A stretch of DNA of 64,000 nucleotides, taken from IMG/VR virus record IMGVR_UViG_3300042564_005549, positions 1 to 64,000 of that record. One strand, given 5' to 3'. Positions 21,593-64,000 of this stretch are shown piece after piece. The notes beneath the pieces are model-generated. The model did not search any database and was not told where the DNA came from. It saw only the letters and a list, made by a program, of their open reading frames with translations. The stretch comes from a virus. Position 1 is the stretch's first letter. Each line of letters opens with the position of its first letter. The position numbers were made by a program, and so were the translations under genes.

Positions 21593-21596
21593 TACT

Positions 21597-22650: not shown

Positions 22651-22672
22651 ATTTACTAAAAAAAATCTTTAG

Positions 22673-22700: not shown

Positions 22701-22711
22701 GTTTATATTTT
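22680..22711 (+). promoter_or_regulatory. early/middle promoter for the replication cassette
   Basis: TTGACA (22681-22686)-17 nt-TATATT (22704-22709). It also reads as TTTG-20 nt-TATATTTT, close to the Bacteroidota -33/-7 consensus. Confidence 0.65.
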
Positions 22712-22750
22712 TACTATAGACAATTATTATTTATTTAAAACCCAATTATT

Positions 22751-23605: not shown

Positions 23606-23615
23606 TTAATTCATA

Positions 23616-23643
23616 GGGGTGGTGAAATATCCACCCCATTTTT
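23616..23643 (+). terminator. hairpin/terminator after SSB
   Basis: GGGGTGG-8 nt-CCACCCC-ATTTTT. Confidence 0.65.
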
Positions 23644-23655
23644 AAAAACAACACA

Positions 23656-24636: not shown

Positions 24637-24649
24637 TAAATTAATTTAA

Positions 24650-25663: not shown

Positions 25664-25666
25664 ACA

Positions 25667-26110: not shown

Positions 26111-26142
26111 TAATATTTTTAATATATAAACAAACACATCAA

Positions 26143-27528: not shown

Positions 27529-27543
27529 AAAAAAACTAAAAAG

Positions 27544-28518: not shown

Positions 28519-28539
28519 TATTTAAAAGTTTTTATAAAG

Positions 28540-30957: not shown

Positions 30958-30965
30958 AAAATAAT

Positions 30966-31037
30966 GGGAGACTCCCTCAAAGTATGACTGTCGACAAGGC
31001 GTACCTTGGTCTTCCAGGTTTTGAGAATACAGGGGGT
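30966..31037 (+). ncRNA. candidate structured RNA element downstream of nrdA
   Basis: GC-rich intergenic stretch with nested pairings ACTCCCT/AGGGGGT, GTAT/ATAC, CTG/CAG and GAC-AAGG-CGTA-CCTT-G-GTC. Confidence 0.35.
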
Positions 31038-31057
31038 GAATATCAAGACACTACATT

Positions 31058-31083
31058 AAAACCCATCTTCGGATGGGTTTTTT
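31058..31083 (+). terminator. terminator with a C(UUCG)G tetraloop
   Basis: AAAACCCATC-TTCG-GATGGGTTTTTT. Confidence 0.88.
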
Positions 31084-31120
31084 ATTTATTACCATTTTGT
31101 ATTAGTTTATATTTATTGAT

Positions 31121-31576
31121 ATGGCGACAACATCATACGGAATTGATTATCCATTTAGGGATAGTAGATACGGAGATTACTTAAAAACAACGGAATCTCC
31201 ACAAAGAGAAGTGAGAGCGAATATCATACACCTACTCCTAACGAGAAAGGGTACAAGATATTATTTACCCGATTTTGGAACAAGACTATATGAGTATATT
31301 TTTGAACAAAATGATGTGGTTACATTCAACCATATAGAAGAGGAGATAAGAGAAGGAATTAGGAAATTTATCCCTAATGTGGAGATTAAATCCTTAAACA
31401 TTATGTCTGCAGAAAATGACCCTGACGAAACAAAAACATATAGTGAGGATGAGGACGAAAGATTATTTAGAGTTTCGGATTACTCAAGTAAACCATACAC
31501 CGCAAAGGTGAAACTTGAATATACAGTAAATAACGGAGCATTTTCGGTATCAGACTTTATAATTATTAACATATAA
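31121..31576 (+). CDS. baseplate wedge protein, gp25/GPW-like
   Basis: GIDYPF, LLLTRKGTRYYLPDFGTRLYEYIFE, IRKFIPNVEI. Confidence 0.92.
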   Translation: MATTSYGIDYPFRDSRYGDYLKTTESPQREVRANIIHLLLTRKGTRYYLPDFGTRLYEYIFEQNDVVTFNHIEEEIREGIRKFIPNVEIKSLNIMSAENDPDETKTYSEDEDERLFRVSDYSSKPYTAKVKLEYTVNNGAFSVSDFIIINI

Positions 31577-31577
31577 G

Positions 31578-33407: not shown

Positions 33408-33460
33408 TTTGTTTTTTAGTTATCTTATAAGAAAATCATTGAGTTTCTATTTATTATAAG

Positions 33461-36400: not shown

Positions 36401-37204
36401 AGTCCGAAATACATTGGTTACAGTTATCAAATATTAGACCCTGAATTATATCCGGATGTTTTCAAAAAGAATAACGTATGGGGACCGTTACCAATAACTA
36501 TGGAATTTTCTGAAGATGGTGAAAGAGTTCGTGCGTGTTTAAATGAACCAACACATATTGCAAATGACGGAGTTACACAAGTTCAAGGTAGATTAACTGA
36601 ATCGTCACAACCGGTACCGTTCTTTTTATGGGATAAGAAAGGAACAGGATTTGGGGCATATAATACAGAAACATTAGATGACCAATCTTGGGACATTGTT
36701 AACGTTCAAGTACAACCATTACAGGGTATGACATATGCGTATAATGTAACAGGTTCAACAGACGATTCATCCGACAAATACTTGTTATTACCAATCACAT
36801 ATGATTTCACAGGCACATCAGTATCAACATTGAATGTTGTGGATGACGAAGGTTTCGCTTACGATGCGGTAATATCAGGAATTACAGGAAACGAATACCA
36901 TCAGTATGATTCACAATATCCTGGTTACACAGTTTTACAAGTAACATCGGGAACTTTAGGTAATCCATCGGCGGGTATGTTATATACTCGTTATGGTAAT
37001 GCGGGAACTTGGAACGGTATCCCTTGGACAACATCAACCGATTTCTTTATTAGAAGAACACAAGATTATTATAACGGAACTAAACAAATACTGTCAACAC
37101 CATTTATGTTCCACTTTGGATTAAGACCGGGTAAAACAGGTCTTGATAAATTTATTGATAGGTTCGGACCTAAAGGTGCATTTAAATCATCGAACTTGAC
37201 ATAA
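33461..37204 (+). CDS. large virion structural protein with an N-terminal prealbumin/carboxypeptidase-regulatory-like beta-sandwich
   Basis: 1247 aa. GVVCGRL...GVPNARVSI and TNSAGDFMIWGVPLG. Lies in the baseplate block. Confidence 0.6.
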   Translation: MIQKHRIHTNIGEDQYIKFEVKQDFDLLEVLSLKLSQRDVYTSLCADYGVVCGRLTVNNGFGVPNARVSIFIPLDDDDVNDPVISALYPYTEVTDKDDNHYRYNLLPARKQHSGHAATGTFPDQTDILDREEVLEVYEKYYKYTVKTNSAGDFMIWGVPLGEQIIVCDVDLSDISCFSLRPDDYLRKGFGLEEFQSTYEFKASVDIDSLPQIKTFKKTIEVYPFWGSEDLCEIGLTRTDFDLSDQGVKIEPKAYLIGGTYTDGRPGLKANCSVKRDSNKKCDLTTKAGKIEMIRMTAEYDENNRPKLELYDVKEDILDDGSFIVSLPMNMDFVYTNEFGENEYSNDPNKGIPTSGCYRFKFKTLQEGTAEFLVPNIREYTTNVDKSYAWSTLYDDYPSESLSLILNTSDGFYTPQDYFYRFTYNKVFTVSSFHNSFFKNSLSTLSGQLLGLKELAPPKESDCENAIVTPPVNFGFRNYTIKLLIADILLFFEQLSTVSGFIFNNSVAKIFHRFSDATNFWPIKSVSRALRRYAYGIQDSGQRELFLIDFPSCLECNKDNEYGTVGGLGNSVDFCEVGTVTIQGTSVESPRTVIATNFVFNNPDPVTCSGATTPADLTYFINNQTNYILTTGSNGVLLTGTTIFTSGATITFNDTLGMFNESITYSAVIRDKNASTVGSEQLAALEEGCALYDTPYDEALVQKYYIVPNRTEILPTSYTAGMDVMATLISDVDSSNKPLPASYDGETYTPRTTSGQSEFSNGIFAMIPGTMTNRRVVAIMKEYRRRRRMAKLFCSGVVNYSFVDNWLSGSLYFISFETQKRFLFWTKSACCENIIKRVTQKNIKTNENEPHYYYRSTTYNNGTGEWGVAFNGSKKRLNRPTTIVDLGPRDEFIREICVDPNLDPNCSVSREIGPSSFKDFGEILGMAINYRMDVSNSNFDVRNFFDNNGFYSNGIRSALDGDLLQLISINSEVGIEQFDLQSPKYIGYSYQILDPELYPDVFKKNNVWGPLPITMEFSEDGERVRACLNEPTHIANDGVTQVQGRLTESSQPVPFFLWDKKGTGFGAYNTETLDDQSWDIVNVQVQPLQGMTYAYNVTGSTDDSSDKYLLLPITYDFTGTSVSTLNVVDDEGFAYDAVISGITGNEYHQYDSQYPGYTVLQVTSGTLGNPSAGMLYTRYGNAGTWNGIPWTTSTDFFIRRTQDYYNGTKQILSTPFMFHFGLRPGKTGLDKFIDRFGPKGAFKSSNLT

Positions 37205-39003
37205 TGGAAAAAAGAAAAATTATATTACCAGAGAAGAGGTATCATAAAGCATCTTCAGAAGACCAAATCCTCCAAATAAATTTTGAAGAGGGTAAGAGTT
37301 TATTAACAAACGACGACAGAGATGTTATTTTGGACATAAATGAGTTATTCGGTCAAGAGAGAAACGATAGTAAAAGATATAAATTATATGGTAAACTAAA
37401 AGTTGTATTTAGAAATATGTACAGTGGGTTATCAAGTTACTTACCATTGTCAGAAGAATTGGCATTGGTTGGTGACGGAGATGACGGTGAATTTGATGGG
37501 TACTTACCATACAATGAATTTGCTTTTTTAAGAAATGATGTGTATCGAGAAAAGTCTAACGATATCGATGTTGCAGATTTAAGTACGTTCACGGGAATTA
37601 CAGTAACAAAAACAGGTGACATTACACACCAATTGATTACACCGATGAATGCTCCTTATCACAATTGGAATTTATACGTATCATACGTTTATGACCACGA
37701 TGAAAGTTATCCGATGAAGTACACGTTGTCAGGAAACACAACGATGAGTTTTGTGAGTGGAGATGGTATTCCTTTTAGAATTTCAGATAACAACGCAAGT
37801 TATAGATTAACAAGCCCTGTTGACCACGGAATGAGTGAAGGTGAATATGTTATACTTGGAGGTTACCCATATTATATTAATTCTATCGGTAATGAATATT
37901 ATAATTCAGAACTATATGTTTTAGATATTTTAAAATCACAAATACCTTCAGGAACAACAACATTCAACAATACGTTAGTAACAGGTAAAAGATGTATTGA
38001 TACAAAAAATATATCAGGAACCACATCAACATATTATGTTCATAAACATAAAACCGCAACTAATACTAACGATTATATTTTAGATAAAGCAGGATTTGAA
38101 AGTCCGATTTTTGAAGATGAGAGAAAATTAGTATTTGAAAATATATCAGGAACTAATGATGTATTAGTTGAGAGAAATAGAATGGAGGCCGTTCTTTATG
38201 ATTTTAAAGAACCCTTTGTATTAACAGGATTAACAAATAATTTAAATTATGAACCAACTGATTTATATCTATCGGTTTTATTTAGAAATGGAAACGGGTA
38301 TTTTGATTACCCACCTAAAGTAGGTTGGAAATTTAATTTACACAATACTTGGATTGATAACCATTTTAATGGTTCAAATAAATCATTACCTCCATATGAA
38401 ACAGGTATGGGTACAGGTACACAATTTGTAAAAAGTGGAATCACATTTACAAGCGGTAGTACATTACCAGTTGGTACTGTATTAACAGGTGCTTTTATAG
38501 AATATAGTCCTTCACAAATTAAAGAAAGGGTAATATCGGAATCGATGTATAGGTTATCAAATCCTACAAATATTTTTAATTATAATCAATCAGTAACAGT
38601 TGAAGGATTTAGTGGAGCAACATCTACAAATATGTATGGTGTAATTTATCAACCACATTATAGAGTTAAAATTAGAGAGTTGTCACCATACGTCGAGGCG
38701 TCATCAACGGCAGATATAGATAATCTACCACAAAACGCAAGATTTTTTCCATTCGAGAATGTATGGAAATGGAGAGACGTCTATGATTATGGATACACAG
38801 ATGATTTAGGATATGGAGTTGACTATCCGTTTTTAAATAATACACATTATGTAAGAACCGATATTAATTTCTATATGAGAAATGAAAAAAATTATCAACA
38901 TAAAGCTGATGGAATTTTTGATTTCAACGGATTTATCAATAGATATAATAATAAAAATAATAGATTGGATAGAAATAATTCAAACACAAGTAAAAACTGT
39001 TAA
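37204..39003 (+). CDS. putative structural protein
   Basis: 599 aa, translationally coupled (TAATG), rich in [ST]GxT. Confidence 0.6.
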   Translation: MEKRKIILPEKRYHKASSEDQILQINFEEGKSLLTNDDRDVILDINELFGQERNDSKRYKLYGKLKVVFRNMYSGLSSYLPLSEELALVGDGDDGEFDGYLPYNEFAFLRNDVYREKSNDIDVADLSTFTGITVTKTGDITHQLITPMNAPYHNWNLYVSYVYDHDESYPMKYTLSGNTTMSFVSGDGIPFRISDNNASYRLTSPVDHGMSEGEYVILGGYPYYINSIGNEYYNSELYVLDILKSQIPSGTTTFNNTLVTGKRCIDTKNISGTTSTYYVHKHKTATNTNDYILDKAGFESPIFEDERKLVFENISGTNDVLVERNRMEAVLYDFKEPFVLTGLTNNLNYEPTDLYLSVLFRNGNGYFDYPPKVGWKFNLHNTWIDNHFNGSNKSLPPYETGMGTGTQFVKSGITFTSGSTLPVGTVLTGAFIEYSPSQIKERVISESMYRLSNPTNIFNYNQSVTVEGFSGATSTNMYGVIYQPHYRVKIRELSPYVEASSTADIDNLPQNARFFPFENVWKWRDVYDYGYTDDLGYGVDYPFLNNTHYVRTDINFYMRNEKNYQHKADGIFDFNGFINRYNNKNNRLDRNNSNTSKNC

Positions 39004-39809
39004 TGAAAGTTTTAAAAAATATTAGAGATGGTATAGTCTTAAATTTAGAATCCAACTTCAAACCAGATTTAGGTAGAGAAGAGGCGTTAGAACAATTTGA
39101 GAACGAAACCATAAGAACCATTATCAATCCTGCGGAAAATTACGAAACGATGAGGTATATTCATAAACCTTATTCGGGTATCACTTCAAACCCAACGGAC
39201 ACTCAATCAGATATTTGGTTTTATTTTTATTTCTATAATCAAAGTGGAACTCACGTTGGTGGTTTAGATTATTCTTTAATTGGTATTGACCATATCGAGA
39301 ATGCTAAACAACTTAGACAAACTACTAAAACATTTTTTAGATTAGAATTTTTTATGGTTCCTGATGGTGAAGTTCCCGATAGAACAAATAGAAAATTAGT
39401 ATTTGCTAAAAATCTTTCATTACCACTTGGAGAAAAAGTTTTTTACACCGGATTTAACGATTACATAAGTGTACCCATTTTTAATGGTTCAAATTATAGA
39501 AACAAAGAAAATATGTATCTGTTTTGGTTCCAAGAGGATGACGCATTTGTCGGTACTATGTTAACGGGTACAACTTTTTATATGACTGCAAGATTTTTTA
39601 ATGGAGAAGACGGAACTGTTTTAAACTTTTCAAACACATCTTTATCCACTAACACTTCAGTTTTGGAGTATAGAGATTTATATTATAAGGTAACGATAGA
39701 CAGGTCAGATTATTCATATCAAGTATTCAGATATTCAGGAACTACAGGAACAAGAATCGGAGAATCGGGTGACCCCATAAAATTTTATGAAATAGTATCT
39801 GGAGGATAA
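39003..39809 (+). CDS. putative structural protein
   Basis: 268 aa, coupled by a TAATG overlap. Confidence 0.6.
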   Translation: MKVLKNIRDGIVLNLESNFKPDLGREEALEQFENETIRTIINPAENYETMRYIHKPYSGITSNPTDTQSDIWFYFYFYNQSGTHVGGLDYSLIGIDHIENAKQLRQTTKTFFRLEFFMVPDGEVPDRTNRKLVFAKNLSLPLGEKVFYTGFNDYISVPIFNGSNYRNKENMYLFWFQEDDAFVGTMLTGTTFYMTARFFNGEDGTVLNFSNTSLSTNTSVLEYRDLYYKVTIDRSDYSYQVFRYSGTTGTRIGESGDPIKFYEIVSGG

Positions 39810-51899: not shown

Positions 51900-53084
51900 A
51901 TGGCACAATTAATATTAACTTGGTCGGCACCTTCGGATTGTAGTGGATGTACTTTTGAATATAGGTACAAACTTAGTAGTGCATCAACATATGTAACAGG
52001 TGCAACAAGTAATACTATTGTAACAATTAATAATTTAATTGACGCTCAAACATACAATTACAGTGTTAGGACCGTATGTCCTGATGCTGGAGGTAATTTA
52101 AGAAGTAGATGGTTAAATGGAAGTTCAGTTACTTGTAACACGAATCCACCATTACAACCAACACCCACACCTACAATTACCCCTACACCTACATCAACAC
52201 CAACTAGTACTCCAACACCGACACCAACGGCGACCGTATTAACACCAACCGCAACACCTACCCCAACTCCTACACCTACAACAACCGTAGGGTCTTGTTT
52301 AAGTGGTGATTTGACATCTTCAGGTAATTGTAGTAGTTCAGATTTGGCATCGTTTACATTATCTAGTGGTTATCAAGCAACGATTACACCAAGTGGATTT
52401 TTCTATAGTGGTACAGGAACTAGATATGCTTATGCATATTTAAGGACAAGTACAGGGACTAACATCCAACAATTTACATTAACGCAAGTTAACAGCACCA
52501 CACCAACATTCTCACCAAGTACGTATACAATTACGACACCAGGTTCATATCAACTTTACGTACAACAAGTTGATTGTAATCAGGGAGGCACAGGAGGTTC
52601 GGGTACAATGAGCCTTACTGTTGGTAATTGTCAAGTTTATACTGCACCGACTCCTACTCCTACCCCAACTCCAACAGCACAGCCAATTTACACTTTCTAT
52701 GCCGCGAGTCAAATACTTTGGGATAATGTAGGAACAACATATTGTAGTGAACCGGGATATATTATGTCAGGTCCATTATACTCTCTTGACGCAACACTCA
52801 CACCGGGCTCAACAGTATTATACACTGACTATACTTTAGAAACGGAATATGTTGGTGGATGGACTAATAGTTCAAACTATCGATTTGCGTATATTACCTC
52901 AACGGACCATCAATTATATACAAATTATCCGAGCTATCCAAACACCATTGACCCTGACGCAGATGGAAATATGGGAGGGATATTCAAATTTGCCGGCGTA
53001 GATGAAAATGGTGTTGTACAAACAACAGGAATATATAGTTGTAGTGGTGGAGGTTCAGGTGGAGGCGATGGTGCCATTGAATAA
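51900..53084 (+). CDS. FN3 + PT-linker adhesin-like protein
   Basis: LTWSAP...EYRYK...INNLIDAQTYNYSVRTVC...SRW (FN3); ends CSGGGSGGGDGAIE. Confidence 0.72.
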   Translation: MAQLILTWSAPSDCSGCTFEYRYKLSSASTYVTGATSNTIVTINNLIDAQTYNYSVRTVCPDAGGNLRSRWLNGSSVTCNTNPPLQPTPTPTITPTPTSTPTSTPTPTPTATVLTPTATPTPTPTPTTTVGSCLSGDLTSSGNCSSSDLASFTLSSGYQATITPSGFFYSGTGTRYAYAYLRTSTGTNIQQFTLTQVNSTTPTFSPSTYTITTPGSYQLYVQQVDCNQGGTGGSGTMSLTVGNCQVYTAPTPTPTPTPTAQPIYTFYAASQILWDNVGTTYCSEPGYIMSGPLYSLDATLTPGSTVLYTDYTLETEYVGGWTNSSNYRFAYITSTDHQLYTNYPSYPNTIDPDADGNMGGIFKFAGVDENGVVQTTGIYSCSGGGSGGGDGAIE

Positions 53085-53120
53085 CGATAACATAAATTCT
53101 AAAAAGAATATTTATAACAT

Positions 53121-55277
53121 ATGAGTTTTTTACACGAAAATGAATCAGAACATATAGCTGCGAGAATCACCAACGAAGGTAGACAAAAAATTGCTGAAGG
53201 TAATTTCAATATTGTCTATTTCCAAGTCGGAGATTCCGAATATGACTATAATTTCGAAGAGTATGATGGTACTTCAGGTACCACAAACCCATCTCAAAAG
53301 GTATTCACACCTTTGGATAAAGATTCTATTGTAAAATACCCATACAAGTTATCAGAATCAACAGTTACAGGTACAACATTTGGTAACCCAATTCAAGTAG
53401 CTCAAATAGAAACTATTAGAAATGAAATGGGCGCTGCGGGATTTGTTTCGGCTTATTTAGAATTTGATGATACAACAGACCCTTGTACAGGAACAACCGT
53501 TGAATGTTCAAATGAAAAGATACCGGTTTCGGCTTTATCAGGAACCACAACATTATATCTAACAGGAAACACATTTTCTGATTGTCAATATATAACAATT
53601 GCATTTACTGAATTAATCGGTGCAGATGCGGTGATTTCAGGAACATCAACAAGTTTAATTTATAGAGTAACTAATTTTGTTTCAGGTTCATCTGTTAATA
53701 CATTAACATTGGATAGAGCGACTCCAAATATGTCAAATATATGTTCAGGAGGTTTTGCAACTGTTATGTGTAACAAATGTAACCCATTTTTTCCTGGTCC
53801 ATATGAAACAGATTTAACTTGTTTACCAAACACACAAAACCCTGAAGACCAACAAGACCCTTGGACATTGAACATTGTGTGGAGTGAAAGACCTGCCGGT
53901 GTTAAAAACCAAGGTTCAGAAATTCAAGAATATGTTAGTGGTTACACAAGTAACGTATTCGTTTCAACAAAAGAATTTTTAGGATACGGTTCGTCATCGG
54001 GACAAACTGTAAACACAGGAACAACAATTACCAATTCATTTGGTGATTCGGTTGTTGTATTTCCTGAAGAACAACATAGTATAGCGATTATACATTATTC
54101 GGAATTGAATACTGAAAGAGAACCTGAAAAATTCTTTAAGTATGAAGATTATATTAGTACTAATAATAGTCTTACTGATGCGTTATTATATGACACAGAC
54201 GACCAACCAGTTACTGATTTAGATTACTTTGAGGTTTATATTCCATTTATTTATTATAATAGAAATACCGGTACCACAATAGGTGCAACATTCACAATGG
54301 ATACTACAGATTATTTTGTGAATTCAACCGCAATGGATACTAAATTAAATAAAATAAAGTACAGATACCTAATTGACGAAAGAGGATATAGAGTAGGTAG
54401 AGTTTATTATAATAACAAAATAATTGTATTTGATGACCAAGAGATTGTTGCAGTTTTAGATTACAAATCTAATAGAAAATATACATTACCAATTCCAAGA
54501 GTTTCTCAAGTTCCTGTTGATACTAAATGTAGCACCAATGGTAACCCATTAACACCACTTATGAGTGGAACTACAGGTCAAACTGTATTTGTTACATATC
54601 TTTTAGAATTTAGTGGGTCAACATCTTTACATTGTAACCACTATTCAAAAATAACAGGTACATCGTTAAATGCTGATATATCATTAAGATTCTCTGATGA
54701 TGATTGGGGACATATGAAATCTACAAAATGTGGATTTAAAGATGGTTACATTGCTGACAAATTATATGCATTAGTTCAATTGGTAGACACTGGTGACCAA
54801 CCACAAACTAATTTATGGACAAAGATTAATATTACATCGGACATCCCTAACCATACTACAGGATTAATTGACCCTGATAATTTAAAAGGTGCACGTTTTG
54901 TTATCACAAATGATGATTATGATAATGGTACGATATATGACATTGAAGACCATTTAGGTGAATTACCCGACCAACCAGCACCATATGCAAACGGTAGTTT
55001 TTATCAAACAACTCCTCAATTTGGTGACGAACAACCATTCCCTGGTAGTGTAAAATTGATTAGAGCTTCCGACTTAACTGTTATGAGATTCTTAGTTAAT
55101 TTACCAAATGGTGAATTTACAACAACACAAAACCCAAGTTATACCACAGGTAAAACTAAAAGAATTACTGAAGTTGCTTTACTTAACAGTAATAAAGAAG
55201 TTTTAGTAATCGGTAAAACACCAAAACCAATTCACAGAGTAGGAACTCAAGTATTTGCAGTTAAAATTGACCTCTAA
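53121..55277 (+). CDS. tail-collar/fibre-attachment protein (DUF3751-like termini)
   Basis: N-terminal ARITNEGRQKIAEG..FQVGD and C-terminal ITEVALLNSNKEVLVIGK..PI..VKIDL. Confidence 0.65.
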   Translation: MSFLHENESEHIAARITNEGRQKIAEGNFNIVYFQVGDSEYDYNFEEYDGTSGTTNPSQKVFTPLDKDSIVKYPYKLSESTVTGTTFGNPIQVAQIETIRNEMGAAGFVSAYLEFDDTTDPCTGTTVECSNEKIPVSALSGTTTLYLTGNTFSDCQYITIAFTELIGADAVISGTSTSLIYRVTNFVSGSSVNTLTLDRATPNMSNICSGGFATVMCNKCNPFFPGPYETDLTCLPNTQNPEDQQDPWTLNIVWSERPAGVKNQGSEIQEYVSGYTSNVFVSTKEFLGYGSSSGQTVNTGTTITNSFGDSVVVFPEEQHSIAIIHYSELNTEREPEKFFKYEDYISTNNSLTDALLYDTDDQPVTDLDYFEVYIPFIYYNRNTGTTIGATFTMDTTDYFVNSTAMDTKLNKIKYRYLIDERGYRVGRVYYNNKIIVFDDQEIVAVLDYKSNRKYTLPIPRVSQVPVDTKCSTNGNPLTPLMSGTTGQTVFVTYLLEFSGSTSLHCNHYSKITGTSLNADISLRFSDDDWGHMKSTKCGFKDGYIADKLYALVQLVDTGDQPQTNLWTKINITSDIPNHTTGLIDPDNLKGARFVITNDDYDNGTIYDIEDHLGELPDQPAPYANGSFYQTTPQFGDEQPFPGSVKLIRASDLTVMRFLVNLPNGEFTTTQNPSYTTGKTKRITEVALLNSNKEVLVIGKTPKPIHRVGTQVFAVKIDL

Positions 55278-55280
55278 CTA

Positions 55281-55309
55281 TTTACAAAACAAATAATATT
55301 ATTTATATA
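55281..55309 (+). promoter_or_regulatory. sigma70-like promoter candidate for the resolvase
   Basis: TTTACA-17 nt-TATATA ending 7 nt before ATG 55317. Confidence 0.45.
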
Positions 55310-55316
55310 TTATTTT

Positions 55317-55928
55317 ATGGAGAACAATTTAAAAAACAAAGCAAAGATTTTGGGATTGGATATCTCAACCAAAACTATTGGCTGGGCATTATTCGATATT
55401 AATAGTTCCAAACTATTGGAGTTAACACACTTCTCACCAAAAATCAAACCACAACCGGAAGATAAAATTGAAGAATTGTTGTTAAAGGCTGAAGCTTTTA
55501 AAAAACATCTTGAAGCTTATAGGAATATGGGTATCACGAGAGTGGTCATTGAAGAACCGTTATTACAATCAAATAACATTTATACCGTTGGTACTTTATT
55601 ACGTTACAATACTTTGATTTTAAAGAATTGTTATGACGTGTTAGGAATCGTTCCAACATTCATCTCAACATATAATGCAAGAAAATTTGCCTTTCCTGAT
55701 TTGGTTGGCGCAAATGATAAAGGTCGTAATGTGTTATTTGGTGGATACCCAAAAGACATCGACAAGAAACACGTAATTTGGGAGCACGTTAATAACGTAT
55801 GTCCTGATGTTAAGTGGTTGTATGGTAAAACAGGAGCACTTAAAAAAGAAAATTACGATATGAGTGATGCCGCAACTGCTGTGATTGGATATGTTAATAT
55901 GGTGAAGACAGAAAAATCCGGCAACTAA
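55317..55928 (+). CDS. RuvC-like Holliday junction resolvase
   Basis: ILGLDISTKTIGWA, VVIEEP, YDMSDAA catalytic pattern. Confidence 0.85.
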   Translation: MENNLKNKAKILGLDISTKTIGWALFDINSSKLLELTHFSPKIKPQPEDKIEELLLKAEAFKKHLEAYRNMGITRVVIEEPLLQSNNIYTVGTLLRYNTLILKNCYDVLGIVPTFISTYNARKFAFPDLVGANDKGRNVLFGGYPKDIDKKHVIWEHVNNVCPDVKWLYGKTGALKKENYDMSDAATAVIGYVNMVKTEKSGN

Positions 55929-55966
55929 TATTTCACTTTTAAATAATTAAATAATATATTTATTAA

Positions 55967-56041
55967 TAGGACGGGACGTGAGCCTTAAAATTCACGTTTG
56001 GTTGGTGTTCCCTCGGAGTGGTGTCCGAGGGATTTTTTTTT
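55967..56041 (+). ncRNA. putative small non-coding RNA (about 75 nt) with its own promoter and terminator
   Basis: TTCACT-17-TATATT and TATTTAT upstream; hairpin ACGTGA/TCACGT; terminator TCCCTCGGA-GTGGTG-TCCGAGGGA-T9; no ATG-initiated ORF. Confidence 0.55.
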
Positions 56042-56068
56042 GTCCTTTTTTTTACTTATATTTTCCAT

Positions 56069-57010
56069 ATGGGTATATCTATCGACGATTACGAACCGAT
56101 TATTGAGATTTTAGAAGATATTCTAGGGGACTATAGAATGCACAATGACTATAAAGGTCAAATGTCATTTGATTGTCCGGTTTGTTCGTATGAGTTAAAA
56201 GGATTAGACCACGGAGACGGTAAAGGTAATTTAGAAGTAAACTACAGACATAACGTTTATAAATGTTGGGCTTGTAGTGAAGTTAATAATACTCACGGTT
56301 CTTTACATAAATTAATTAAGAAATATGGGACAACCAAACATTTAAAAAGATATGAATTGTTGGTTCCCGAAGAAAGTTTTGAAAATGGAAAACCAAATTT
56401 TAAGGTTGTTAAATTACCCGAAGAATTTGTACCATTTTCTAAAGTTAGTGCCGGTTTAAAATTAACACACTACTATAAGACTGCGTTAAATTATGTCCGT
56501 AAAAGAAATATAACCGATGAGATGTTATACAAATATAACATTGGATTTTGTTATAGGGGACCATATAGCAATAGAATTATTATCCCTTCATATGATTCAG
56601 AAAATAGGTTAAATTACTTTATTGCAAGGTCATATGAGGCAAACACTAAGTTTAAATATAAAAACCCTGAGGCACAAAAAGAAATAGTAATCTTCAACGA
56701 AAATTTAATTGATTGGTTTATGCCAATCTATATTGTTGAGGGAGCATTTGATAGTATTTTTCTACCTAACTCAATTCCGATGTTAGGTAAAGTGATGGGT
56801 GAAAAATTATTTAGTTTATTATATGAGAAGGCATTAGAAGTTGTTGTGGTATTGGATGGAGATGCTTGGGAAAATTCTAAAAAAATATATCATAAGTTAA
56901 ATGGTGGTAGATTATTTGGGAAAGTTTGGACAATAAAATTACCGTTAGATAAAGACATTGCTGACCTCCAAGGTAAATTAGGTGAATACGAAAAAATACA
57001 ATTAGATTAA
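56069..57010 (+). CDS. DNA primase (Zn finger + TOPRIM)
   Basis: Start set at ATG 56069. CPVC...CWAC, RIIIP, YKNP, IVEGAFD, LDGDA, KDIAD. Confidence 0.92.
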   Translation: MGISIDDYEPIIEILEDILGDYRMHNDYKGQMSFDCPVCSYELKGLDHGDGKGNLEVNYRHNVYKCWACSEVNNTHGSLHKLIKKYGTTKHLKRYELLVPEESFENGKPNFKVVKLPEEFVPFSKVSAGLKLTHYYKTALNYVRKRNITDEMLYKYNIGFCYRGPYSNRIIIPSYDSENRLNYFIARSYEANTKFKYKNPEAQKEIVIFNENLIDWFMPIYIVEGAFDSIFLPNSIPMLGKVMGEKLFSLLYEKALEVVVVLDGDAWENSKKIYHKLNGGRLFGKVWTIKLPLDKDIADLQGKLGEYEKIQLD

Positions 57011-57011
57011 T

Positions 57012-57869
57012 ATGAATTTAGTAGAAATCTCAAAAGAGATAAACAATTTATTAGAAGAGAGAAGAAAGGATTTAGAACTTACTTTTATTGAGGAAGAACA
57101 CATTTATTATATGAAAGATATGAATGGTGTTTTGAGAAAAACATTTCCATCAGTATCTAAAGTAGTAAAGAAATTCCATAAAGCATTTGATGCTGAAGGT
57201 ACCGCACTAAGAATGTGTAACGGTGACCCAATTGCTGCTCGAGAGTTACAGGAACAATGGAAAGCAACCGGACAGTATGCTACCAATATGGGTAGTCGTG
57301 TTCACTTTGAATTAGAGAGTGATTTAGTACAAAGACACGAAGACTACAAAGAAGTTCGTAGACCAATTTTTGAATGTGACGAAACACAACTTACCAAAAG
57401 TGATAATATGATTATTGCAGGTAAACAGTTTCTTGACTTAATGTTAGAAAGAGGTGCGATTCTTATTGATACAGAAATAGTGTTAGGTGATAATGAATTA
57501 GGATATACGGGTCAGCCGGATAAAATATGGTTGATGTCGAATAAAGAAGGTACTGACTTTGGTATTGTTGTTACCGATTGGAAAACCAATCAACCAAAAA
57601 ACTTTGAAGTCCAACACTACACAGGTAGATTGTACCCACCATTCCAAGAGTATCACGATACTGCGTTAGGTCATTATTACATACAACTTCCACTTTACGC
57701 AAGATTGTTGATAAAGATGTTAAAAGGAACCAAGTACGAAAATTTAAAATTATTAGGTTGTGTGATTGTATTATTAAAAGAAGATGGTACATTCGTAGAG
57801 TACAAAGTTCCGCCACAAATTAACAACACAATCCTTCAAATGGATTTAACAAAATATACAAAGAAATGA
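57012..57869 (+). CDS. PD-(D/E)xK exonuclease (RecB/Cas4-like superfamily)
   Basis: PSVS, GSRVH, GQPDKI, VTDWKT, YYIQLPLY. Confidence 0.85.
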   Translation: MNLVEISKEINNLLEERRKDLELTFIEEEHIYYMKDMNGVLRKTFPSVSKVVKKFHKAFDAEGTALRMCNGDPIAARELQEQWKATGQYATNMGSRVHFELESDLVQRHEDYKEVRRPIFECDETQLTKSDNMIIAGKQFLDLMLERGAILIDTEIVLGDNELGYTGQPDKIWLMSNKEGTDFGIVVTDWKTNQPKNFEVQHYTGRLYPPFQEYHDTALGHYYIQLPLYARLLIKMLKGTKYENLKLLGCVIVLLKEDGTFVEYKVPPQINNTILQMDLTKYTKK

Positions 57870-58690
57870 TAAAGAAAATAATTCACATTGCTGATTTACA
57901 TATTCGTACAATTCAAATGCACGAGTTGTATAAAAAACAATTTGATAGATTAATTGATGAGATTAAAGAACACTCAATTCAATGGACATCAGAAGGTATT
58001 GGATGGGACGAAATTCGAATAGTAATCGCTGGTGACATTGCACACCAAAAGATTAATATATCTAATGAACAACTATTATTAACAAGTTGGTTCTTAAATA
58101 AATTATCAGGATATGGTAAAGTAATTATCATACCGGGAAATCACGATTTCTTAGAAAATAATACAGAACGTATCGATAGTATCACACCTATCGTGGAATT
58201 ATTGGATAACAAAAACATTACATACCTAAAAGATAGTGGTGATTACGTTGATACCGAAGGTAATGTCCAATGGGTTGTTTATTCATTATATCAACACAAT
58301 GTTAGACCTGAATTCACTAAACAAGAAGGGTTATTAACAGTCGGATTATTTCACGGACCGATTCAAGGATTGTCAACTGATTTAGGTTTTGAGTTTGAGG
58401 ATGCATATGATAGATTAAACTTTGTTGATTTAGATTTATTATTATGTGGAGATATTCATAAGAGACAACAATGGGATTTACCTAACGGAGGAAAGGCGGT
58501 TATGGTTGGAAGTCTAATCCAACAAAACTTTGGCGAAACTATTAAACATCACGGATATGGAATCTACGATGTTAATACCAAGGATTATACATTCCACGAT
58601 TTACCAAACGACCAACCATTTATGCATTTTAAAATAACAGATATTAACGATATTGAAAATGAGCAAGAGGAACTTATTAACCTTGGGTGA
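57866..58690 (+). CDS. Mre11/SbcD-like metallophosphoesterase (gp47-like), short
   Basis: IADLH, AGDIAH, PGNHD, FHG, CGDIHK, GSLIQQNFGE. Confidence 0.9.
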   Translation: MIKKIIHIADLHIRTIQMHELYKKQFDRLIDEIKEHSIQWTSEGIGWDEIRIVIAGDIAHQKINISNEQLLLTSWFLNKLSGYGKVIIIPGNHDFLENNTERIDSITPIVELLDNKNITYLKDSGDYVDTEGNVQWVVYSLYQHNVRPEFTKQEGLLTVGLFHGPIQGLSTDLGFEFEDAYDRLNFVDLDLLLCGDIHKRQQWDLPNGGKAVMVGSLIQQNFGETIKHHGYGIYDVNTKDYTFHDLPNDQPFMHFKITDINDIENEQEELINLG

Positions 58691-59108
58691 TGAGTTTCTT
58701 GAGTATTGCCGATTAAACGAAATTAAAGACGTTGAAAAATTGGCTAAAGAAACATTTCAAAGGGGTTTCACTATATTGAAGTATGGTGAGACCCCATACG
58801 GTATTAAGGGTACCGATAAAGTTGTTGAAAAAGAAATTATCAAAGAGGTTGTTGTTGAAAAAATCGTAGAGGTAATTAAAGAAGTTCCCGTTGAAAAAAT
58901 TGTGGAGGTGATTAAAGAAGTCCCTATTGAAATAGTCGGAGATACACAAATCATCACTAAGGAAGTTATAAAAGAAATAACTGTGGTGGATAATACCGAA
59001 ATAGAAAAATTAAGAGAAGAGAATAATAAGTTAAACGAGGCTTTAAATAAATTTAATAAGGCAACGTTTATGAAAAATAGTGATTTGAATAATTTATATG
59101 GCGAATAA
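58659..59108 (+). CDS. hypothetical protein with VEKIVEVIKEVP repeats
   Basis: ATG at 58659 (MSKRNLL). Val/Glu/Lys/Ile repeats followed by a coiled coil. Confidence 0.7.
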   Translation: MSKRNLLTLGDEFLEYCRLNEIKDVEKLAKETFQRGFTILKYGETPYGIKGTDKVVEKEIIKEVVVEKIVEVIKEVPVEKIVEVIKEVPIEIVGDTQIITKEVIKEITVVDNTEIEKLREENNKLNEALNKFNKATFMKNSDLNNLYGE

Positions 59109-60339
59109 ATTTAAAATAGGATTTATTGGTTTAGGTAAGTTGGGTTTACCTTGTGCATTGGCAATTGATAATAAGGGACACGATGTGTGGGGTTATGATA
59201 TTGATAATACCGTCGAGGAAATTCTTAATGGTAAGAAACTACCTTACCTTGAAGAAGGGGCTGAGGATTTATTAAAGACTCACAATATCAAATACGGAAC
59301 AGTAAAAGATGTTGTGAATCATTCTGATATAATATTTGTCCCAATCCAAACTCCTCACGATTATAAATTTGAAGGGTGTACAAGAATACCCGATGAAAGG
59401 TCAGACTTTGATTACGAACCTTTAAAAAATGGAATTAAAACTCTATCTGATGAAATACTAAAACAGGATGGAGAAAAGATTGTGGTAATCATATCAACAG
59501 TTTTACCCGGTACTATTGAAAGAGAAATAATGCCGATAATTGAAAGAAATGAAAATTTTATATTGTGTTATAACCCGTACTTCATTGCTATGGGAACAAC
59601 AATAAACGATTTTTTAAATCCTGAATTCATATTATTTGGTTCTAAAGATAAAAGAGCATCGAAGTATGTTAAGAAGTTTTATGAAACATTACACGATAAA
59701 CCATTTTATCAAACGTCAATCAAAAATGCAGAATTAATTAAAGTTTCCTATAATACCTTTATTGGTATGAAGATAGTATTTGCTAATACGATTATGGAAA
59801 TTTGTCATAAAACCGGTGCGAACATCGATGAAGTTATGGGTGGTTTGAAATTGGCAACGAACAGATTAATTTCCACCAAATATTTAAATGGAGGGATGGG
59901 AGATGGAGGAGGATGTCACCCAAGAGATAACATAGCAATGAGTTGGTTGGCTAATAAATTAAACCTATCCCACAATTTTTTTGAAGATATTATGGAAGCA
60001 AGAGAAGAACAAACAGAATTCTTAATCGAATTATTAACACAACAACCAGGACCATATACAATCTTGGGTAAGACGTTTAAAGAAAATACCAATTTAACTT
60101 TGGGTTCACCATCAATGTTATTGGCTAATATGTTAACGGAGCAAGGAGTTACATTCCAACACTACGACCCATTTGTCGACACGGTTGAACCATATTTTGA
60201 AAAAGGAACATATATTGTAACCGTACCTCACGAACAATTTATAAATTTTATTTTCCCTTCAGGTTCGATTGTTATTGATGTTTGGAGAATCTTAGACATC
60301 AACGACTCAACAGTTACACATATTAAAGTAGGTAACTAG
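59098..60339 (+). CDS. UDP-glucose/GDP-mannose 6-dehydrogenase family protein
   Basis: GLGKLG Rossmann motif, STVLPGT, AELIKVSYN, GDGGGCHPRD (catalytic Cys), FKENT, YDP. Confidence 0.92.
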   Translation: MANKFKIGFIGLGKLGLPCALAIDNKGHDVWGYDIDNTVEEILNGKKLPYLEEGAEDLLKTHNIKYGTVKDVVNHSDIIFVPIQTPHDYKFEGCTRIPDERSDFDYEPLKNGIKTLSDEILKQDGEKIVVIISTVLPGTIEREIMPIIERNENFILCYNPYFIAMGTTINDFLNPEFILFGSKDKRASKYVKKFYETLHDKPFYQTSIKNAELIKVSYNTFIGMKIVFANTIMEICHKTGANIDEVMGGLKLATNRLISTKYLNGGMGDGGGCHPRDNIAMSWLANKLNLSHNFFEDIMEAREEQTEFLIELLTQQPGPYTILGKTFKENTNLTLGSPSMLLANMLTEQGVTFQHYDPFVDTVEPYFEKGTYIVTVPHEQFINFIFPSGSIVIDVWRILDINDSTVTHIKVGN

Positions 60340-60340
60340 T

Positions 60341-60371
60341 TTTGATTTATCCATTTTTTTAGTTATATTTT
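60341..60371 (+). promoter_or_regulatory. early/middle promoter candidate
   Basis: TTTG-19 nt-TATATTTT, the same layout as at 22680. Confidence 0.45.
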
Positions 60372-60390
60372 TATAACAAAGAATATTATT

Positions 60391-60702
60391 ATGGATAAAA
60401 TTTTATTATGGTCACTCGCCGCTTATGGAATGACCTCAATTATTGTATGGGGTTCTATCTTTGAATCAACAAGAGAATTTATAAAAAGAAACTCAAAGTT
60501 TTTTGGGGACTTAGTTAGTTGTACTTTATGTACAAGTACTTGGGTTGGTTTTTTTATGTCATTAGCCTTAGGTGGATTAACAACTAAATTCTTCGATATA
60601 CATTGGGTATTCGGAATCTTTTGGGACGGTATGTTCACGGCAGGTATTGTGTGGTCAATAAATGCAATCATCGAATTTTTTGAAGAAAGTAGATTAAAAT
60701 AA
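60391..60702 (+). CDS. DUF1360-like small membrane protein
   Basis: Hydrophobic segments plus FFGDLVSCTLCTSTWVG. Confidence 0.7.
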   Translation: MDKILLWSLAAYGMTSIIVWGSIFESTREFIKRNSKFFGDLVSCTLCTSTWVGFFMSLALGGLTTKFFDIHWVFGIFWDGMFTAGIVWSINAIIEFFEESRLK

Positions 60703-60705
60703 TCT

Positions 60706-61665
60706 ATGAAATTACTTAAAGTAGGTTACAAGGTAATTGATTATTCAATAATCAAGGAACTTTATTATTACGTAACCAAAGAGTATTTTTTACGTGAACC
60801 AAAATTATTTGAGTCACTAAAAATAAAGAATGGTGGTGATAAAAAGAATGCCACGTATGTTGAAGTAATCAAAGGTGATAAAGATAGTTTCTTCGATTTA
60901 ACACCTAACAGAAAAGATGAATGGGATTCAATTATCGATTATCTAAACGATAAATACAAGTCCCATATCAAACCGCCGAAAGAAGAGTCTTTTGATGATG
61001 AGGATAAGAGGGTTAAGTTTTTTAAAAACCTAAATAAAAACGCCAAACCAGAATCAATCTTAGGAAGACTTTTACATTTCAATCCAATTAATGAGGATGG
61101 TGTTAGTGAGTTACTGACATTCGATGAACTAAAAAAACACCCTGATTTTGGTAAAACAAATAAAGATGATAGTTGTATTCCAAATAACGGAACGGGATGG
61201 AATAGGACAGTTGGGAAGTATTTTAAGTTCACATTAGTAAGAGATAAAGGAAAAACAACCGCATTTAAATTTGATGGGTATAATTTTGATTATTCTCACA
61301 AAAATCGATATATTCGTAAAGATATACGAAAGGCATTAGAACACAGTAGATGTGCTCATTGTGGTGTGAAAGGTAAGAAGATGGAAATCGACCACAAAAA
61401 TGGTAGATACAATGACGATAATGTGTTGAGTTCAGATACTCAAAACCTATCCGATTTTCAACCATTGTGTGGTAATTGTAATAAATTAAAAAGAAGTGCT
61501 TGTAAAAAGTGTAAAGAGACGGGACTTAGATATGACGCACAATTCTTAGGTTATCCGTTTTCACAATTAGATGGTGACGCCGTTTATAACGATGATTTAG
61601 GTTGTTCCGGTTGTTACCTTTTTGATTGTATGGTTTGGAAATTCAGTTGCGTAAAAAATATTTAA
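60706..61665 (+). CDS. HNH endonuclease of the IceA1/NlaIII restriction-enzyme family, with an N-terminal extension
   Basis: P.EDGVS, NGTGWNR, IRKDI..., CAHCG..EIDHKNGR..D..TQNLSDFQPLCGNCNKLKR.ACKKCK.TG.RYDA..LGYP...GCSGC is collinear with IceA1/NlaIII as I recall them. Confidence 0.8.
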   Translation: MKLLKVGYKVIDYSIIKELYYYVTKEYFLREPKLFESLKIKNGGDKKNATYVEVIKGDKDSFFDLTPNRKDEWDSIIDYLNDKYKSHIKPPKEESFDDEDKRVKFFKNLNKNAKPESILGRLLHFNPINEDGVSELLTFDELKKHPDFGKTNKDDSCIPNNGTGWNRTVGKYFKFTLVRDKGKTTAFKFDGYNFDYSHKNRYIRKDIRKALEHSRCAHCGVKGKKMEIDHKNGRYNDDNVLSSDTQNLSDFQPLCGNCNKLKRSACKKCKETGLRYDAQFLGYPFSQLDGDAVYNDDLGCSGCYLFDCMVWKFSCVKNI

Positions 61666-61666
61666 T

Positions 61667-64000
61667 ATGGCAAATCCTTTTATAAAAGTAGAGTGGGAAG
61701 ATACACCAGAAAATCTTACCCAAGAAAGAATCAAGAGAGTTAAAAGTTATTTCGAAAAGAAGTACAACTCCACCAGTGTTAAAATCATAACCAAGATATC
61801 CACAAACACACTTAATACACAATTAAGAACACTTGAGGCAACTGATAGTATTTTAGACCATCAGTATCAGAAGAAAATTGTTAAAGAATTTGTTACTGAA
61901 AACGACCTTAACGTTAAGTGGGATTTACTTAATAGATTGGACGATAAAGTTAACGGTGAGATTGATAAATTAAATCAAAATAAAGTACGTTACAATAAAT
62001 GGTTCATAAAGAAAATAGAGTTTTCTAATTTCTTATCATTTGGTGAAGACAATGTAATTGAATTTGAGAACTTAGATGGTATTACTGTTATTGAATCAAC
62101 CCCAAGAAACTTTGGAGGTAAGTCTACCGCAACTGTTGACCTACTAATGTTCTTGTTCTTCAACGCAACCACAAAAACAAAAACCAATATTGAGGTATTC
62201 AATAAGTTTTCAGATAAAGACGAGGTAAAAGTAAAAGGATATGTGACAATTGACGGAGATAGTTACATCATATCAAGAACAATTACGAGAAAGAAAACAA
62301 AGGTTGGAGAATATAACGTTAAGAGTGATTTGGAATTCTTCAAAGTAACTGAAGACGGTACAATATCAAACTTATCGGGAGAACAAAGAAGAGAAACTGA
62401 AACATTTATTGCATCTGCGATTGGTAGTCAAGAAGATTTTTTATCAACGATATTAACAACCGGTTATAACTTAGAAGAACTAATTGAATCTAAACCAACC
62501 GCAAGAGGTCAGATTCTTACAAAGTTTTTAGGGTTAGAAAGTTTAAAACAAAAAGAAGACATCTGTAAAGAGATGTATAATGACTGGTCTAAAAAATTAA
62601 TTTCAAATACTCATAACGTAAAAGACTTAGAAGATACTAATGAAACTTTAACGGAGAGTATCGGTAATTCTGAAAATGAGATTTTAAGACTAACCGAAGT
62701 ATTATCCGATACTGAAAGGGCACTTACGATGTTGGAGGAAAGGAGAGACAATGCACTTAGTTCTAAAAATAACGATGTTGACCAAGAACTAATAAGAACT
62801 AACCCAACATTGTTGAAAGGTGAGATTGATGCATTAATACTTAAAAGGAATCAAAGTAAATCAAGTGCTGATAGTGTTGACCTTAAAGAACCATCGAAGT
62901 ATTATCACGAAGATGAACATAAAGAGTTGAGAGGTCAAATGGCGGACCTACAGGGCATTGAGTTCGCATACAAATATGAAAAAACTGAAAAGGAAAAGTT
63001 AATCAAACAATTAACAGAAGGAACAATTTGTCCTACTTGTAATAGAGCGTTGGATGAGGTTGACCATACTGAAGAAATTGAAAAGATTAAAAAAGAAATT
63101 GAGGACATCATAAAAAACATTGAAACCAATAAATCTGAATTTGATAAATTAAAAGTTAAGTCAGATGAATTGGATTCTTTAAAAAGTGAGTTCGACAATT
63201 ATGAAAGAGATAAACTTCGTAAAGCGAGATATGAATTGGAAGTTGAGCAAAGACAACTTGAGATTGATTCAAAACAGTCAAAATTAACTAACTACGATAA
63301 TAACAAAAAGAAATTAGAACACAACCAAAGAATTGATTCAGAAGTTGTTGCTTTAAGGACTAAGATTGAAACTGCAAACGCCGATATCCGTATCACTAAT
63401 CAGTCAATCGAAAAACACAAGAATAATATCACCACGTCAAAAGAAAAGATTGGGGTTAATAACGATTTAATTACAAAAATTAAATCCGAAGAAGAATTGA
63501 TTTACGTGTTCAAAACATATCTAACCATATTTGGTAAGAATGGTATTTCTAAAGTTATTATTAAAAATATGATTCCATTATTAAATCAGGAGTTGTATCG
63601 ATTATTATCTGACAGTTGCTACTTTACATTGGAGTTAAACATTAATGATAAGAATGAATTAGAATTCTTAATGATTGATAATGAAACTAGAGTTGTTAAA
63701 TCATTATCGAGTGGTTCAGGTTACGAAAGAACCATCTCATCATTGGCTATCAGAAGTGTATTGACTAAGATATCATCATTACCTAAACCTAACATTGTGG
63801 TTATGGATGAGGTCTTCGGTAAAATTGCCGACGACAATCTCGAAATGGTAGGGGAATTCTTTAAGAAAATCAAAAATTATTTTGAACATATATTAGTAAT
63901 TTCTCATAACCCATTAATAAGAAACTGGTCGGACAATATCATTATGGTTAAAAAAGATGAAAATATATCCTCAGTTGAATATATTAACACCAAAATTTCT
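61667..64000 (+). CDS. Rad50/SbcC-like ATPase (gp46-like) with an N-terminal extension, runs off the window end
   Basis: Not in the track. ATG 61667 (MANPFIKVEW). IEFSNFLSFG, NFGGKST, CPTC zinc hook, SGSGYE signature, VVMDEVFG, ISH. Confidence 0.92.
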   Translation, partial: MANPFIKVEWEDTPENLTQERIKRVKSYFEKKYNSTSVKIITKISTNTLNTQLRTLEATDSILDHQYQKKIVKEFVTENDLNVKWDLLNRLDDKVNGEIDKLNQNKVRYNKWFIKKIEFSNFLSFGEDNVIEFENLDGITVIESTPRNFGGKSTATVDLLMFLFFNATTKTKTNIEVFNKFSDKDEVKVKGYVTIDGDSYIISRTITRKKTKVGEYNVKSDLEFFKVTEDGTISNLSGEQRRETETFIASAIGSQEDFLSTILTTGYNLEELIESKPTARGQILTKFLGLESLKQKEDICKEMYNDWSKKLISNTHNVKDLEDTNETLTESIGNSENEILRLTEVLSDTERALTMLEERRDNALSSKNNDVDQELIRTNPTLLKGEIDALILKRNQSKSSADSVDLKEPSKYYHEDEHKELRGQMADLQGIEFAYKYEKTEKEKLIKQLTEGTICPTCNRALDEVDHTEEIEKIKKEIEDIIKNIETNKSEFDKLKVKSDELDSLKSEFDNYERDKLRKARYELEVEQRQLEIDSKQSKLTNYDNNKKKLEHNQRIDSEVVALRTKIETANADIRITNQSIEKHKNNITTSKEKIGVNNDLITKIKSEEELIYVFKTYLTIFGKNGISKVIIKNMIPLLNQELYRLLSDSCYFTLELNINDKNELEFLMIDNETRVVKSLSSGSGYERTISSLAIRSVLTKISSLPKPNIVVMDEVFGKIADDNLEMVGEFFKKIKNYFEHILVISHNPLIRNWSDNIIMVKKDENISSVEYINTKIS

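Follow-up and report, generated by a model that had tools for sequence, protein, structure and literature searches.

The DNA analysed here, hereafter the window, is a stretch of 64,000 nucleotides that makes up the first 64 kb of an 81,704-bp viral contig in IMG/VR (IMGVR_UViG_3300042564_005549, record G000 below), for which CheckV gave a completeness of 24%. Close to its right end lies the gene under study, here called ICEA after its Pfam family, which encodes a predicted HNH restriction endonuclease of the NlaIII/IceA1 family. The recognition word of IceA1 is CATG (Xu et al. 2002, as cited in PMC2816704), and this word was missing from the window and from the whole contig. The features that carry this pairing are listed below, with positions counted from the first nucleotide of the window.

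60706..61665, + strand: ICEA (NlaIII/IceA1-family) HNH restriction-endonuclease gene, 319 amino acids (aa), no adjacent methylase (open reading frame (ORF); Pfam PF05315)
61351..61494, + strand: HNH / His-Me finger core, residues 216-263, CxHC ... DHKNGRY ... C..N (16-homolog alignment; weak PF01844 match)
60706..60990, + strand: phage-specific N-terminal module, residues 1-95 (absent from cellular homologs, rare in protein clusters)
1..64000, no strand: absence of CATG and GATC across the window, extending over the whole 81.7-kb contig (word counts)

An earlier note on this DNA, made from the letters alone, had placed the ORF at 60706..61665 in the NlaIII/IceA1 family, and the Pfam search agreed. 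Residues 160-318 matched positions 36-204 of the 218 in ICEA PF05315 (E 3.3e-30; 105.7 bits, cut-off 24 bits), which is the NlaIII/IceA1 family (PMC5714182), and a PF05315 search over the genome of the window scored 108.3 bits. The HNH family PF01844 matched residues 216-262 weakly and below threshold (16.5 bits vs the 21.4-bit cut-off). Among 16 full-length homologs with 37-88% identity, a Cys/His core was invariant, comprising C216, H218, C219, D229, H230, N232, C255, N259, C266, C269, C300, and C303. A classical ICEA enzyme of 237 aa from Salegentibacter, which itself matches Pfam ICEA with E 1e-64, aligned colinearly through its residues 23-233 with residues 107-316 of the phage protein (32% identity, E 3e-32). 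Because this alignment takes in nearly the whole classical enzyme, the 319-aa protein is, as judged from its sequence, a complete NlaIII-type enzyme plus an extra N-terminal part. The best cellular match was an iceA-like locus of Helicobacter heilmannii, 53% identical over residues 161-307; the Helicobacter gene (L178 9875-10535) is broken by frameshifts and stops and adjoins an intact 374-aa D12 methylase gene.

The ratio of nonsynonymous to synonymous substitution (dN/dS) of ICEA was 0.06 at dS ~1 when compared with relatives 89% identical, and that of the neighbouring SbcC gene was similarly low (0.044). By this measure ICEA is a maintained, functional gene under strong purifying selection. 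The AlphaFold2 (AF2) model of the nuclease reached a moderate pLDDT of 72.8. Foldseek of this model against the PDB returned no match at E <= 0.001 and only weak HNH rows, and a sequence search of the PDB returned nothing for the nuclease.

We counted all 4-mers in the window, with Markov and shuffle checks, and CATG occurred 0 times, as the earlier note had reported from reading. The expectation was 233 by dinucleotide shuffles (strand-counted), 165 by the Markov model, and 195 from base composition. The entire contig likewise had 0 CATG, where 213 were expected. GATC, whose absence the earlier note had overlooked, was also at 0 (187 expected in the window and 244 in the contig), and these two were the only words absent among the 256 4-mers of the window. 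The avoidance was visible at codon level, and here the same note had seen correctly for CATG. Before a codon starting with G, His was written CAC 66 times and CAT never (0/66), while CAT makes up 60% elsewhere; Ser, Pro, Thr, and Ala codons ending in A preceded TGN in 0/81 cases (52% elsewhere); codons ending in C preceded ATG in 0/197 cases (26% elsewhere). For GATC, Asp before C was GAC 155 times and GAT 0 times, and ATC followed a G-ending codon in 0/203 cases. Shuffling synonymous codons in the coding sequence gave an expectation of 130 +/- 7.5 CATG and 207 +/- 9.5 GATC, with 0 observed for both, and the control words GTAC and TCGA stood at expectation. CATG and GATC have been removed entirely through synonymous codon choice. 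A sequencing or assembly artefact was ruled out, since the word-free sequence recurs in independent lake metagenomes and the loss is specific to codon context. None of the 40 listed population variants created CATG or GATC, where only ~1.2 were expected to. The window was also low in CTAG (31/103), in CCAG/CTGG (~0.4 of expectation), and in GCGC (5/20), and the same words were low in four of the relatives introduced below (G002, G004, G051, and G054).

Orthologs of SbcC, 45-88% identical, were found on 80 viral contigs; among these are records of 297-336 kb, of which several have been rated complete. Near-identical DNA turned up in lake-water and freshwater metagenomes of 17 studies, and the contig encodes a primase, SbcD-like and SbcC-like proteins, ClpP, a sigma-70 factor, NusG, and thioredoxin. 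The carrier is a lytic jumbo phage of a ~300-335-kb lake phage clade that is widespread in freshwater. The INPHARED phage collection held no relative, whether searched by protein or by DNA.

The carriers of ICEA were placed on an SbcC tree. ICEA fell into three separate lineages, namely the window with G001 and G002, then G004, and then G003. The ICEA proteins of the G004 and G003 lineages were 39-43% identical to that of the window, and the flanking SbcC 65-71%. At the loci of the three lineages, CATG observed/expected was 0/165, 0/60, and 2/59. The counts over whole records are as follows.

G000 (window contig): ICEA alone; CATG 0/213; GATC 0/244
G002 (160 kb): ICEA alone; CATG 0/512; GATC 0/473
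G004: ICEA alone; CATG 0/222; GATC 21/236
G003: ICEA + PF01555 methylase; CATG 6/170; GATC 71/171
G051 (complete, 308.6 kb): no ICEA in genome; CATG 0/766; GATC 0/845
G054 (complete, 318 kb): no ICEA in genome; CATG 269/870; GATC 0/883

In the close clade, the 51 loci without ICEA had CATG observed/expected ratios of 0.17-0.94 (median 0.62). Counted by lineage, CATG was at or near zero in 3/3 lineages with ICEA and in 0/33 without it (Fisher p 1.4e-4). The idea in the earlier note that presence of the gene should track CATG loss was therefore upheld by three lineages of the close clade and contradicted by the complete genome G051, which lacks ICEA and has CATG 0/766. The sister of the window lineage, G081, keeps both words (CATG 105/165, GATC 141/167), which places the origin of both purges on the window's own branch. 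Zero CATG persists in both the window contig and G002, which diverged at dS ~1, so that selection against the word is ongoing. Among 34 viral ICEA loci, exact CATG zeros were found only where no methylase adjoins. A short-form 197-aa ICEA with no adjacent methylase was also found in a different subclade (L021 6796-7389), with CATG 0/34. This L021 gene forms a clean insertion in a G051-like phage, beside the gene for the prohead protease, at a site that is empty in G051 and G054.

We next turn to the methylase. The earlier statement that no methyltransferase lies in the window is literally true, but a D12 methylase is encoded just outside it. Beyond the window, where that note had advised looking for a cognate methylase, none of the cognate type was found: PF01555, PF00145, PF02384, and PF07669 methylases were absent from the 81.7-kb contig, and PF01555, PF02384, and PF07669 were absent from G001, G002 (160 kb), and G004 (the search for PF00145 covered the contig alone). 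A cognate methyltransferase beside the endonuclease, which would mark a type II restriction-modification (R-M) system, did not appear in the available sequence. The contig covers ~24% of the genome, and together with the overlapping G002 (160 kb) ~57%, as estimated from coordinates, with at least ~43% unseen. Where methylases do adjoin ICEA, they belong to PF01555 on viral contigs and to D12 in Helicobacter and Salegentibacter; most viral ICEA loci are paired with the former and cellular loci with the latter, while the window locus is unpaired. The locus has instead the two features of a PacI-type solitary endonuclease, no methylase and no site, assuming that the site is CATG (contig 0/213, G002 0/512).

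The nearby D12-class N6-adenine methylase (P0043) has 278 aa with an intact DPPY motif and lies at contig 76413-77249 (L037:14710-15546), 15 kb downstream. GATC and CATG are the usual targets of D12 methylases. Its orthologs were present in 31/50 related records and in 4/4 complete genomes, at any CATG or GATC content, and it was 94% identical in G004, where SbcC was only 71% identical. Compared with the ICEA-linked D12 enzymes of Helicobacter and Salegentibacter, it shared generic motifs only (E 0.05 and 0.016). As a clade core gene not akin to the ICEA-linked D12 methylases, it was rejected as the partner of the nuclease. The gene is kept even in genomes without both GATC and CATG, and its sole weak relative in the PDB was 7m6b (E 5e-4).

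The neighbourhood of ICEA is made up of the following genes.

57866..58690, + strand: SbcD/Mre11-like (T4 gp47-like) metallophosphoesterase, upstream operon member (PF00149 Metallophos, E 2.4e-11)
60391..60702, + strand: DUF1360 membrane protein gene, 103 aa, conserved left border of the slot that holds ICEA (Pfam DUF1360)
61667..64000, + strand: SbcC/Rad50 (T4 gp46-like), conserved right border of the slot (PF13558 SbcC Walker B)

The DUF1360 gene stood beside the slot in all relatives examined. It is separated from the ICEA start by 3 nt, and SbcC starts 1 nt after the ICEA stop, with its own stop codon 1-3 nt past the window end. Because of these gaps of 3 nt and 1 nt, and because no +-strand terminator was found between 57 and 64 kb, ICEA is placed inside the SbcD-SbcC operon. 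A UDP-glucose/GDP-mannose dehydrogenase (UGDH) gene lies at window 59098-60339, with the SbcD-side genes to its left and the membrane-protein gene to its right; among the relatives examined, only G001 shares it with the window. The single metatranscriptome contig, 59257-59509, falls in this gene and does not reach ICEA. Downstream of the window, contig 64043-67418 and 77275-79495 (L037 2340-5715 and 15572-17792) encode ClpP, a sigma-70-type factor, a NusG-like protein, an AAA ATPase, and thioredoxin.

The slot was hypervariable in the clade. It was empty in nine loci, held a common gene of 162-242 aa (F1) in many, and showed at least nine cargo types. Most of the other cargos were family-less ORFs (ORFans) paired with PF01555 methylases, with seven partner types, one of which is ICEA plus methylase (G003); one further cargo was an ORFan with an Eco57I/TaqI-like methylase. 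Two cargos were free of methylase, namely ICEA in the window, G001, G002, and G004, and a 315-aa ORFan in G081. Pfam and NCBIfam searches with the methylase-partner and orphan ORFs of the slot gave no family, with sub-cut-off matches only; for the cargo F14, the protein atlas yielded leads and nothing firmer. Contigs from the same lakes diverged from the window exactly at the slot borders.

The missing words varied with this cargo. In G081, the orphan 315-aa ORF (L044 9052-9999) had no PF01555 gene within 54.6 kb, and AGCT stood at 0/68 with the other 4-bp palindromes normal, which makes the ORF a candidate AGCT-specific nuclease without methylase. In G083 (L055 5662-7135), the slot held a 198-aa ORF with a PF01555 methylase, and TCGA stood at 5/56. 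A palindrome other than GATC was purged in 5/13 lineages with special cargo vs 1/23 with a plain or empty slot (p 0.016, counted roughly by lineage).

The N-terminal module of the nuclease was missing from all cellular ICEA homologs found, and a word search with the N-terminal 100 residues returned close relatives only. Among 1.84 billion proteins it occurred in 17 representative clusters, always at the N-terminus of proteins of 300-345 aa. In most of these ICEA follows it in the same protein, and in the remainder the C-terminal domain belongs to no known family; one of the latter genes adjoined a methylase.

The data best fit CATG cutting, because methylase-less ICEA occurred only in genomes with exactly zero CATG. 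A genome with zero CATG is a necessary condition for carrying a methylase-less CATG cutter, and with an enzyme indifferent to CATG there would be no reason to expect it. The explanation that we favour, with slightly better than even confidence, is that the window encodes an active CATG-specific NlaIII-type endonuclease without methylase, harmless to its carrier through site loss, with targets and history as follows. Any new CATG in the phage genome would be cut in every infection, which would hold the count at zero. The enzyme would act only on CATG-bearing DNA in the infected cell, that is, the host chromosome if this is not CATG-methylated, and co-infecting relatives; most co-occurring relatives in the same lakes keep CATG. 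The SbcCD proteins encoded around ICEA could process the cut ends. As to history, an R-M cassette may have been acquired first, imperfect self-methylation would have led to site depletion, and the methylase would then have been lost. G003, which has ICEA with a methylase and CATG 6/170, fits the intermediate state of this route. By an alternative route, host pressure would have come first and a nuclease without methylase would have been tolerated afterwards. These targets and this order of events are what we infer. The earlier note had further suggested that degraded host DNA could feed SbcCD and ribonucleotide reductase (RNR), which is plausible from gene position only.

A wider reading, which we hold tentatively and at somewhat less than even confidence, concerns the slot as a whole. 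It could be an arsenal whose exchangeable weapons are nucleases with short sites (ICEA for CATG, ORFans for AGCT and TCGA, and others), to which the carrier would be immune by erasing the word, with or without a methylase, and the methylase would be lost after the last site has gone. Such an arsenal would mainly serve co-infection warfare and host DNA breakdown, with self and non-self distinguished in sequence and not by modification. The variety of slot cargo looks more like phage-phage competition than nucleotide scavenging.

Several observations weigh against the favoured explanation. That the enzyme cuts, and cuts CATG, is a prediction from homology and from co-variation with CATG. The unseen part of the genome may encode a methylase. 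Methylase-linked viral ICEA loci were also depleted of CATG (median observed/expected 0.30), and did not differ significantly from methylase-less loci (p 0.33). One consideration weakens host DNA as a target: had a CATG R-M system of the host driven the purge, the host's own DNA would be methylated and thus resistant. A host with its own CATG R-M system would point instead to rival phages as the targets. A contrary case is G051, which belongs to a subclade further away (its SbcC is 46% identical); this genome, 308,574 bp long and complete with terminal repeats, had 0 CATG without ICEA. No ICEA remnant and no PvuII-family gene was found in it, its 87 specific ORFs included no clear substitute CATG nuclease, and the neighbours of its PF01555 methylase were LysM, DHH, and NUDIX proteins. 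Since this ICEA-less genome has CATG 0/766, the CATG purge does not need ICEA. The earlier proposal of self-protection by site absence is thus backed by the enzyme family, the zero CATG count, and the lack of a cognate-type methylase, and opposed by G051, which shows the same CATG loss with no ICEA gene. GATC raises the same difficulty. It is absent from many relatives irrespective of what the slot holds, two complete genomes among them (0/845 and 0/883), and no nuclease of the DpnII or MutH/Sau3AI families was found, even in these two. G084 (L084) had ACGT at 6/73 with only the common F1 cargo, so it offers no candidate gene. The clade does therefore lose 4-bp palindromes to some force for which no phage nuclease was identified, host restriction being the simplest candidate, and a force of this type may have removed CATG before or alongside the arrival of the nuclease. 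In the distant subclade, near-identical SbcC genes (L100/G051 and L104/G054) were surrounded by 0 to 16 CATG within 22 kb. With near-identical SbcC and 0 vs 269 CATG in the complete G051 and G054 genomes, CATG loss there is recent or patchy.

The most probable alternative is that avoidance of host R-M explains both missing words and that ICEA is a later passenger, perhaps taken from an R-M cassette and tolerated in a CATG-free genome with no part in its upkeep. We regard this as rather unlikely for the two words together, while host restriction avoidance is the simplest reading of the GATC absence. In its support are the complete ICEA-less G051 (CATG 0/766, GATC 0/845), the GATC purge that is clade-widespread and independent of ICEA with no DpnII or MutH-family nuclease found, the ACGT loss in G084 with only F1 cargo, and the finding that restriction-site avoidance is widespread in lytic phages (PMC6286503). 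It does not account for the close clade, where every CATG-free lineage carries ICEA and 0/33 others are CATG-free. Close relatives with different cargos miss different words (CATG, AGCT, TCGA), a pattern that host avoidance predicts only where the cargo and the R-M systems of the host have a common origin. Besides, ICEA is under strong purifying selection and forms an old phage-specific subfamily (37-45% identity, with its own N-terminal module), so it is not a recent neutral passenger.

It is improbable, in our view, that ICEA is a selfish mobile nuclease, either an R-M remnant or a homing-type HNH enzyme, that spreads through the slot without benefit to the phage. The slot itself invites this thought, lying between conserved genes, empty in some relatives and with at least nine cargos in others, and with divergence of same-lake contigs at its borders. 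The identities of 39-43% for ICEA vs 65-71% for SbcC suggest separate acquisitions, and L021 provides a second insertion site. When the gene was examined as a homing HNH enzyme, the insertion between conserved genes was present, but the match was to a restriction-enzyme family and not to the homing HNH families. A homing enzyme with a long target would not need genome-wide loss of a 4-bp word, and dN/dS of 0.06 over dS ~1 indicates long vertical maintenance in the lineage.

Very unlikely is a nuclease that has lost restriction activity or has another specificity or role (for example, repair or packaging with SbcCD) with CATG absence unrelated, since the extra N-terminal module and the SbcD-SbcC operon position, which could signal a new role, and the moderate model (pLDDT 72.8) with no significant structural match stand against catalytic and zinc-binding residues that are all invariant, colinearity with the whole classical enzyme, and the four lineages in which ICEA without methylase coincides with exactly zero CATG, a pattern hardly to be expected of an enzyme indifferent to CATG.

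The favoured explanation, a CATG cutter made harmless by site loss, was compared with known systems. R.NlaIII of Neisseria lactamica and IceA1/R.HpyI of Helicobacter pylori, type IIP HNH enzymes for CATG, belong to the same Pfam family and share the HNH and Cys-pair core. The phage protein differs from them by its ~95-aa N-terminal module, by having no adjacent methylase, and by its lytic jumbo phage carrier, and its specificity is predicted. The PacI site is an AT-rich word of 8 bp, which chance alone makes rare in a GC-rich bacterium. R.PacI of Pseudomonas alcaligenes is described in PMC3488263 as a solitary HNH enzyme tolerated because the carrier genome lacks the site. The likeness lies in an HNH restriction enzyme without methylase in a site-free carrier genome; the difference is that the carrier here is a virus, in which a 4-bp word expected ~213 times per contig, and ~770-870 times per full clade genome, was erased.

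The restriction enzymes associated with chlorovirus virions (e.g. CviAII of PBCV-1) are thought to degrade host DNA within minutes, with the nucleotides recycled; their genes always adjoin the methylase gene, and the virus protects itself by methylation (PMC7019647). Both are virus-encoded short-site enzymes, but in the present case the protection would be site absence, and the host is bacterial. In T4, endonuclease II/IV opens the attack on host DNA, which the SbcCD-like gp46/47 then degrades, with self marked by hydroxymethylcytosine. The likeness to T4 is by function only, the ICEA gene lying inside a gp47/gp46-like operon; the discrimination proposed here is by sequence, and the nuclease families are unrelated. 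The site avoidance published for lytic phages (PMC6286503) involves the same complete or near-complete loss of palindromes through synonymous changes. There the host enzymes exert the pressure, whereas here the genome encodes a family enzyme for one of the missing words.

No published description of such a phage system was found in the literature searched. The enzyme family, the solitary HNH enzyme in a site-free genome (PacI), and viral restriction enzymes that attack the host (chloroviruses) are already known. Relative to that literature, a lytic phage with a methylase-free 4-bp cutter, the complete erasure of a word expected hundreds of times, a phage-specific N-terminal module on an ICEA enzyme, and a hotspot of cassettes in which cargo and missing word go together appear to be new.

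In the textbook view, restriction enzymes defend the host and depend on a partner methylase. Should ICEA cut CATG, the system would be a case of sequence-encoded discrimination between self and non-self in viruses, and it would reveal a route from an R-M system to an orphan nuclease. The specificity of a nuclease could then be read from the missing word of its carrier, as for the 315-aa ORFan of G081 and AGCT, and ICEA would represent a likely mechanism of competition among the phages that co-occur in lakes.

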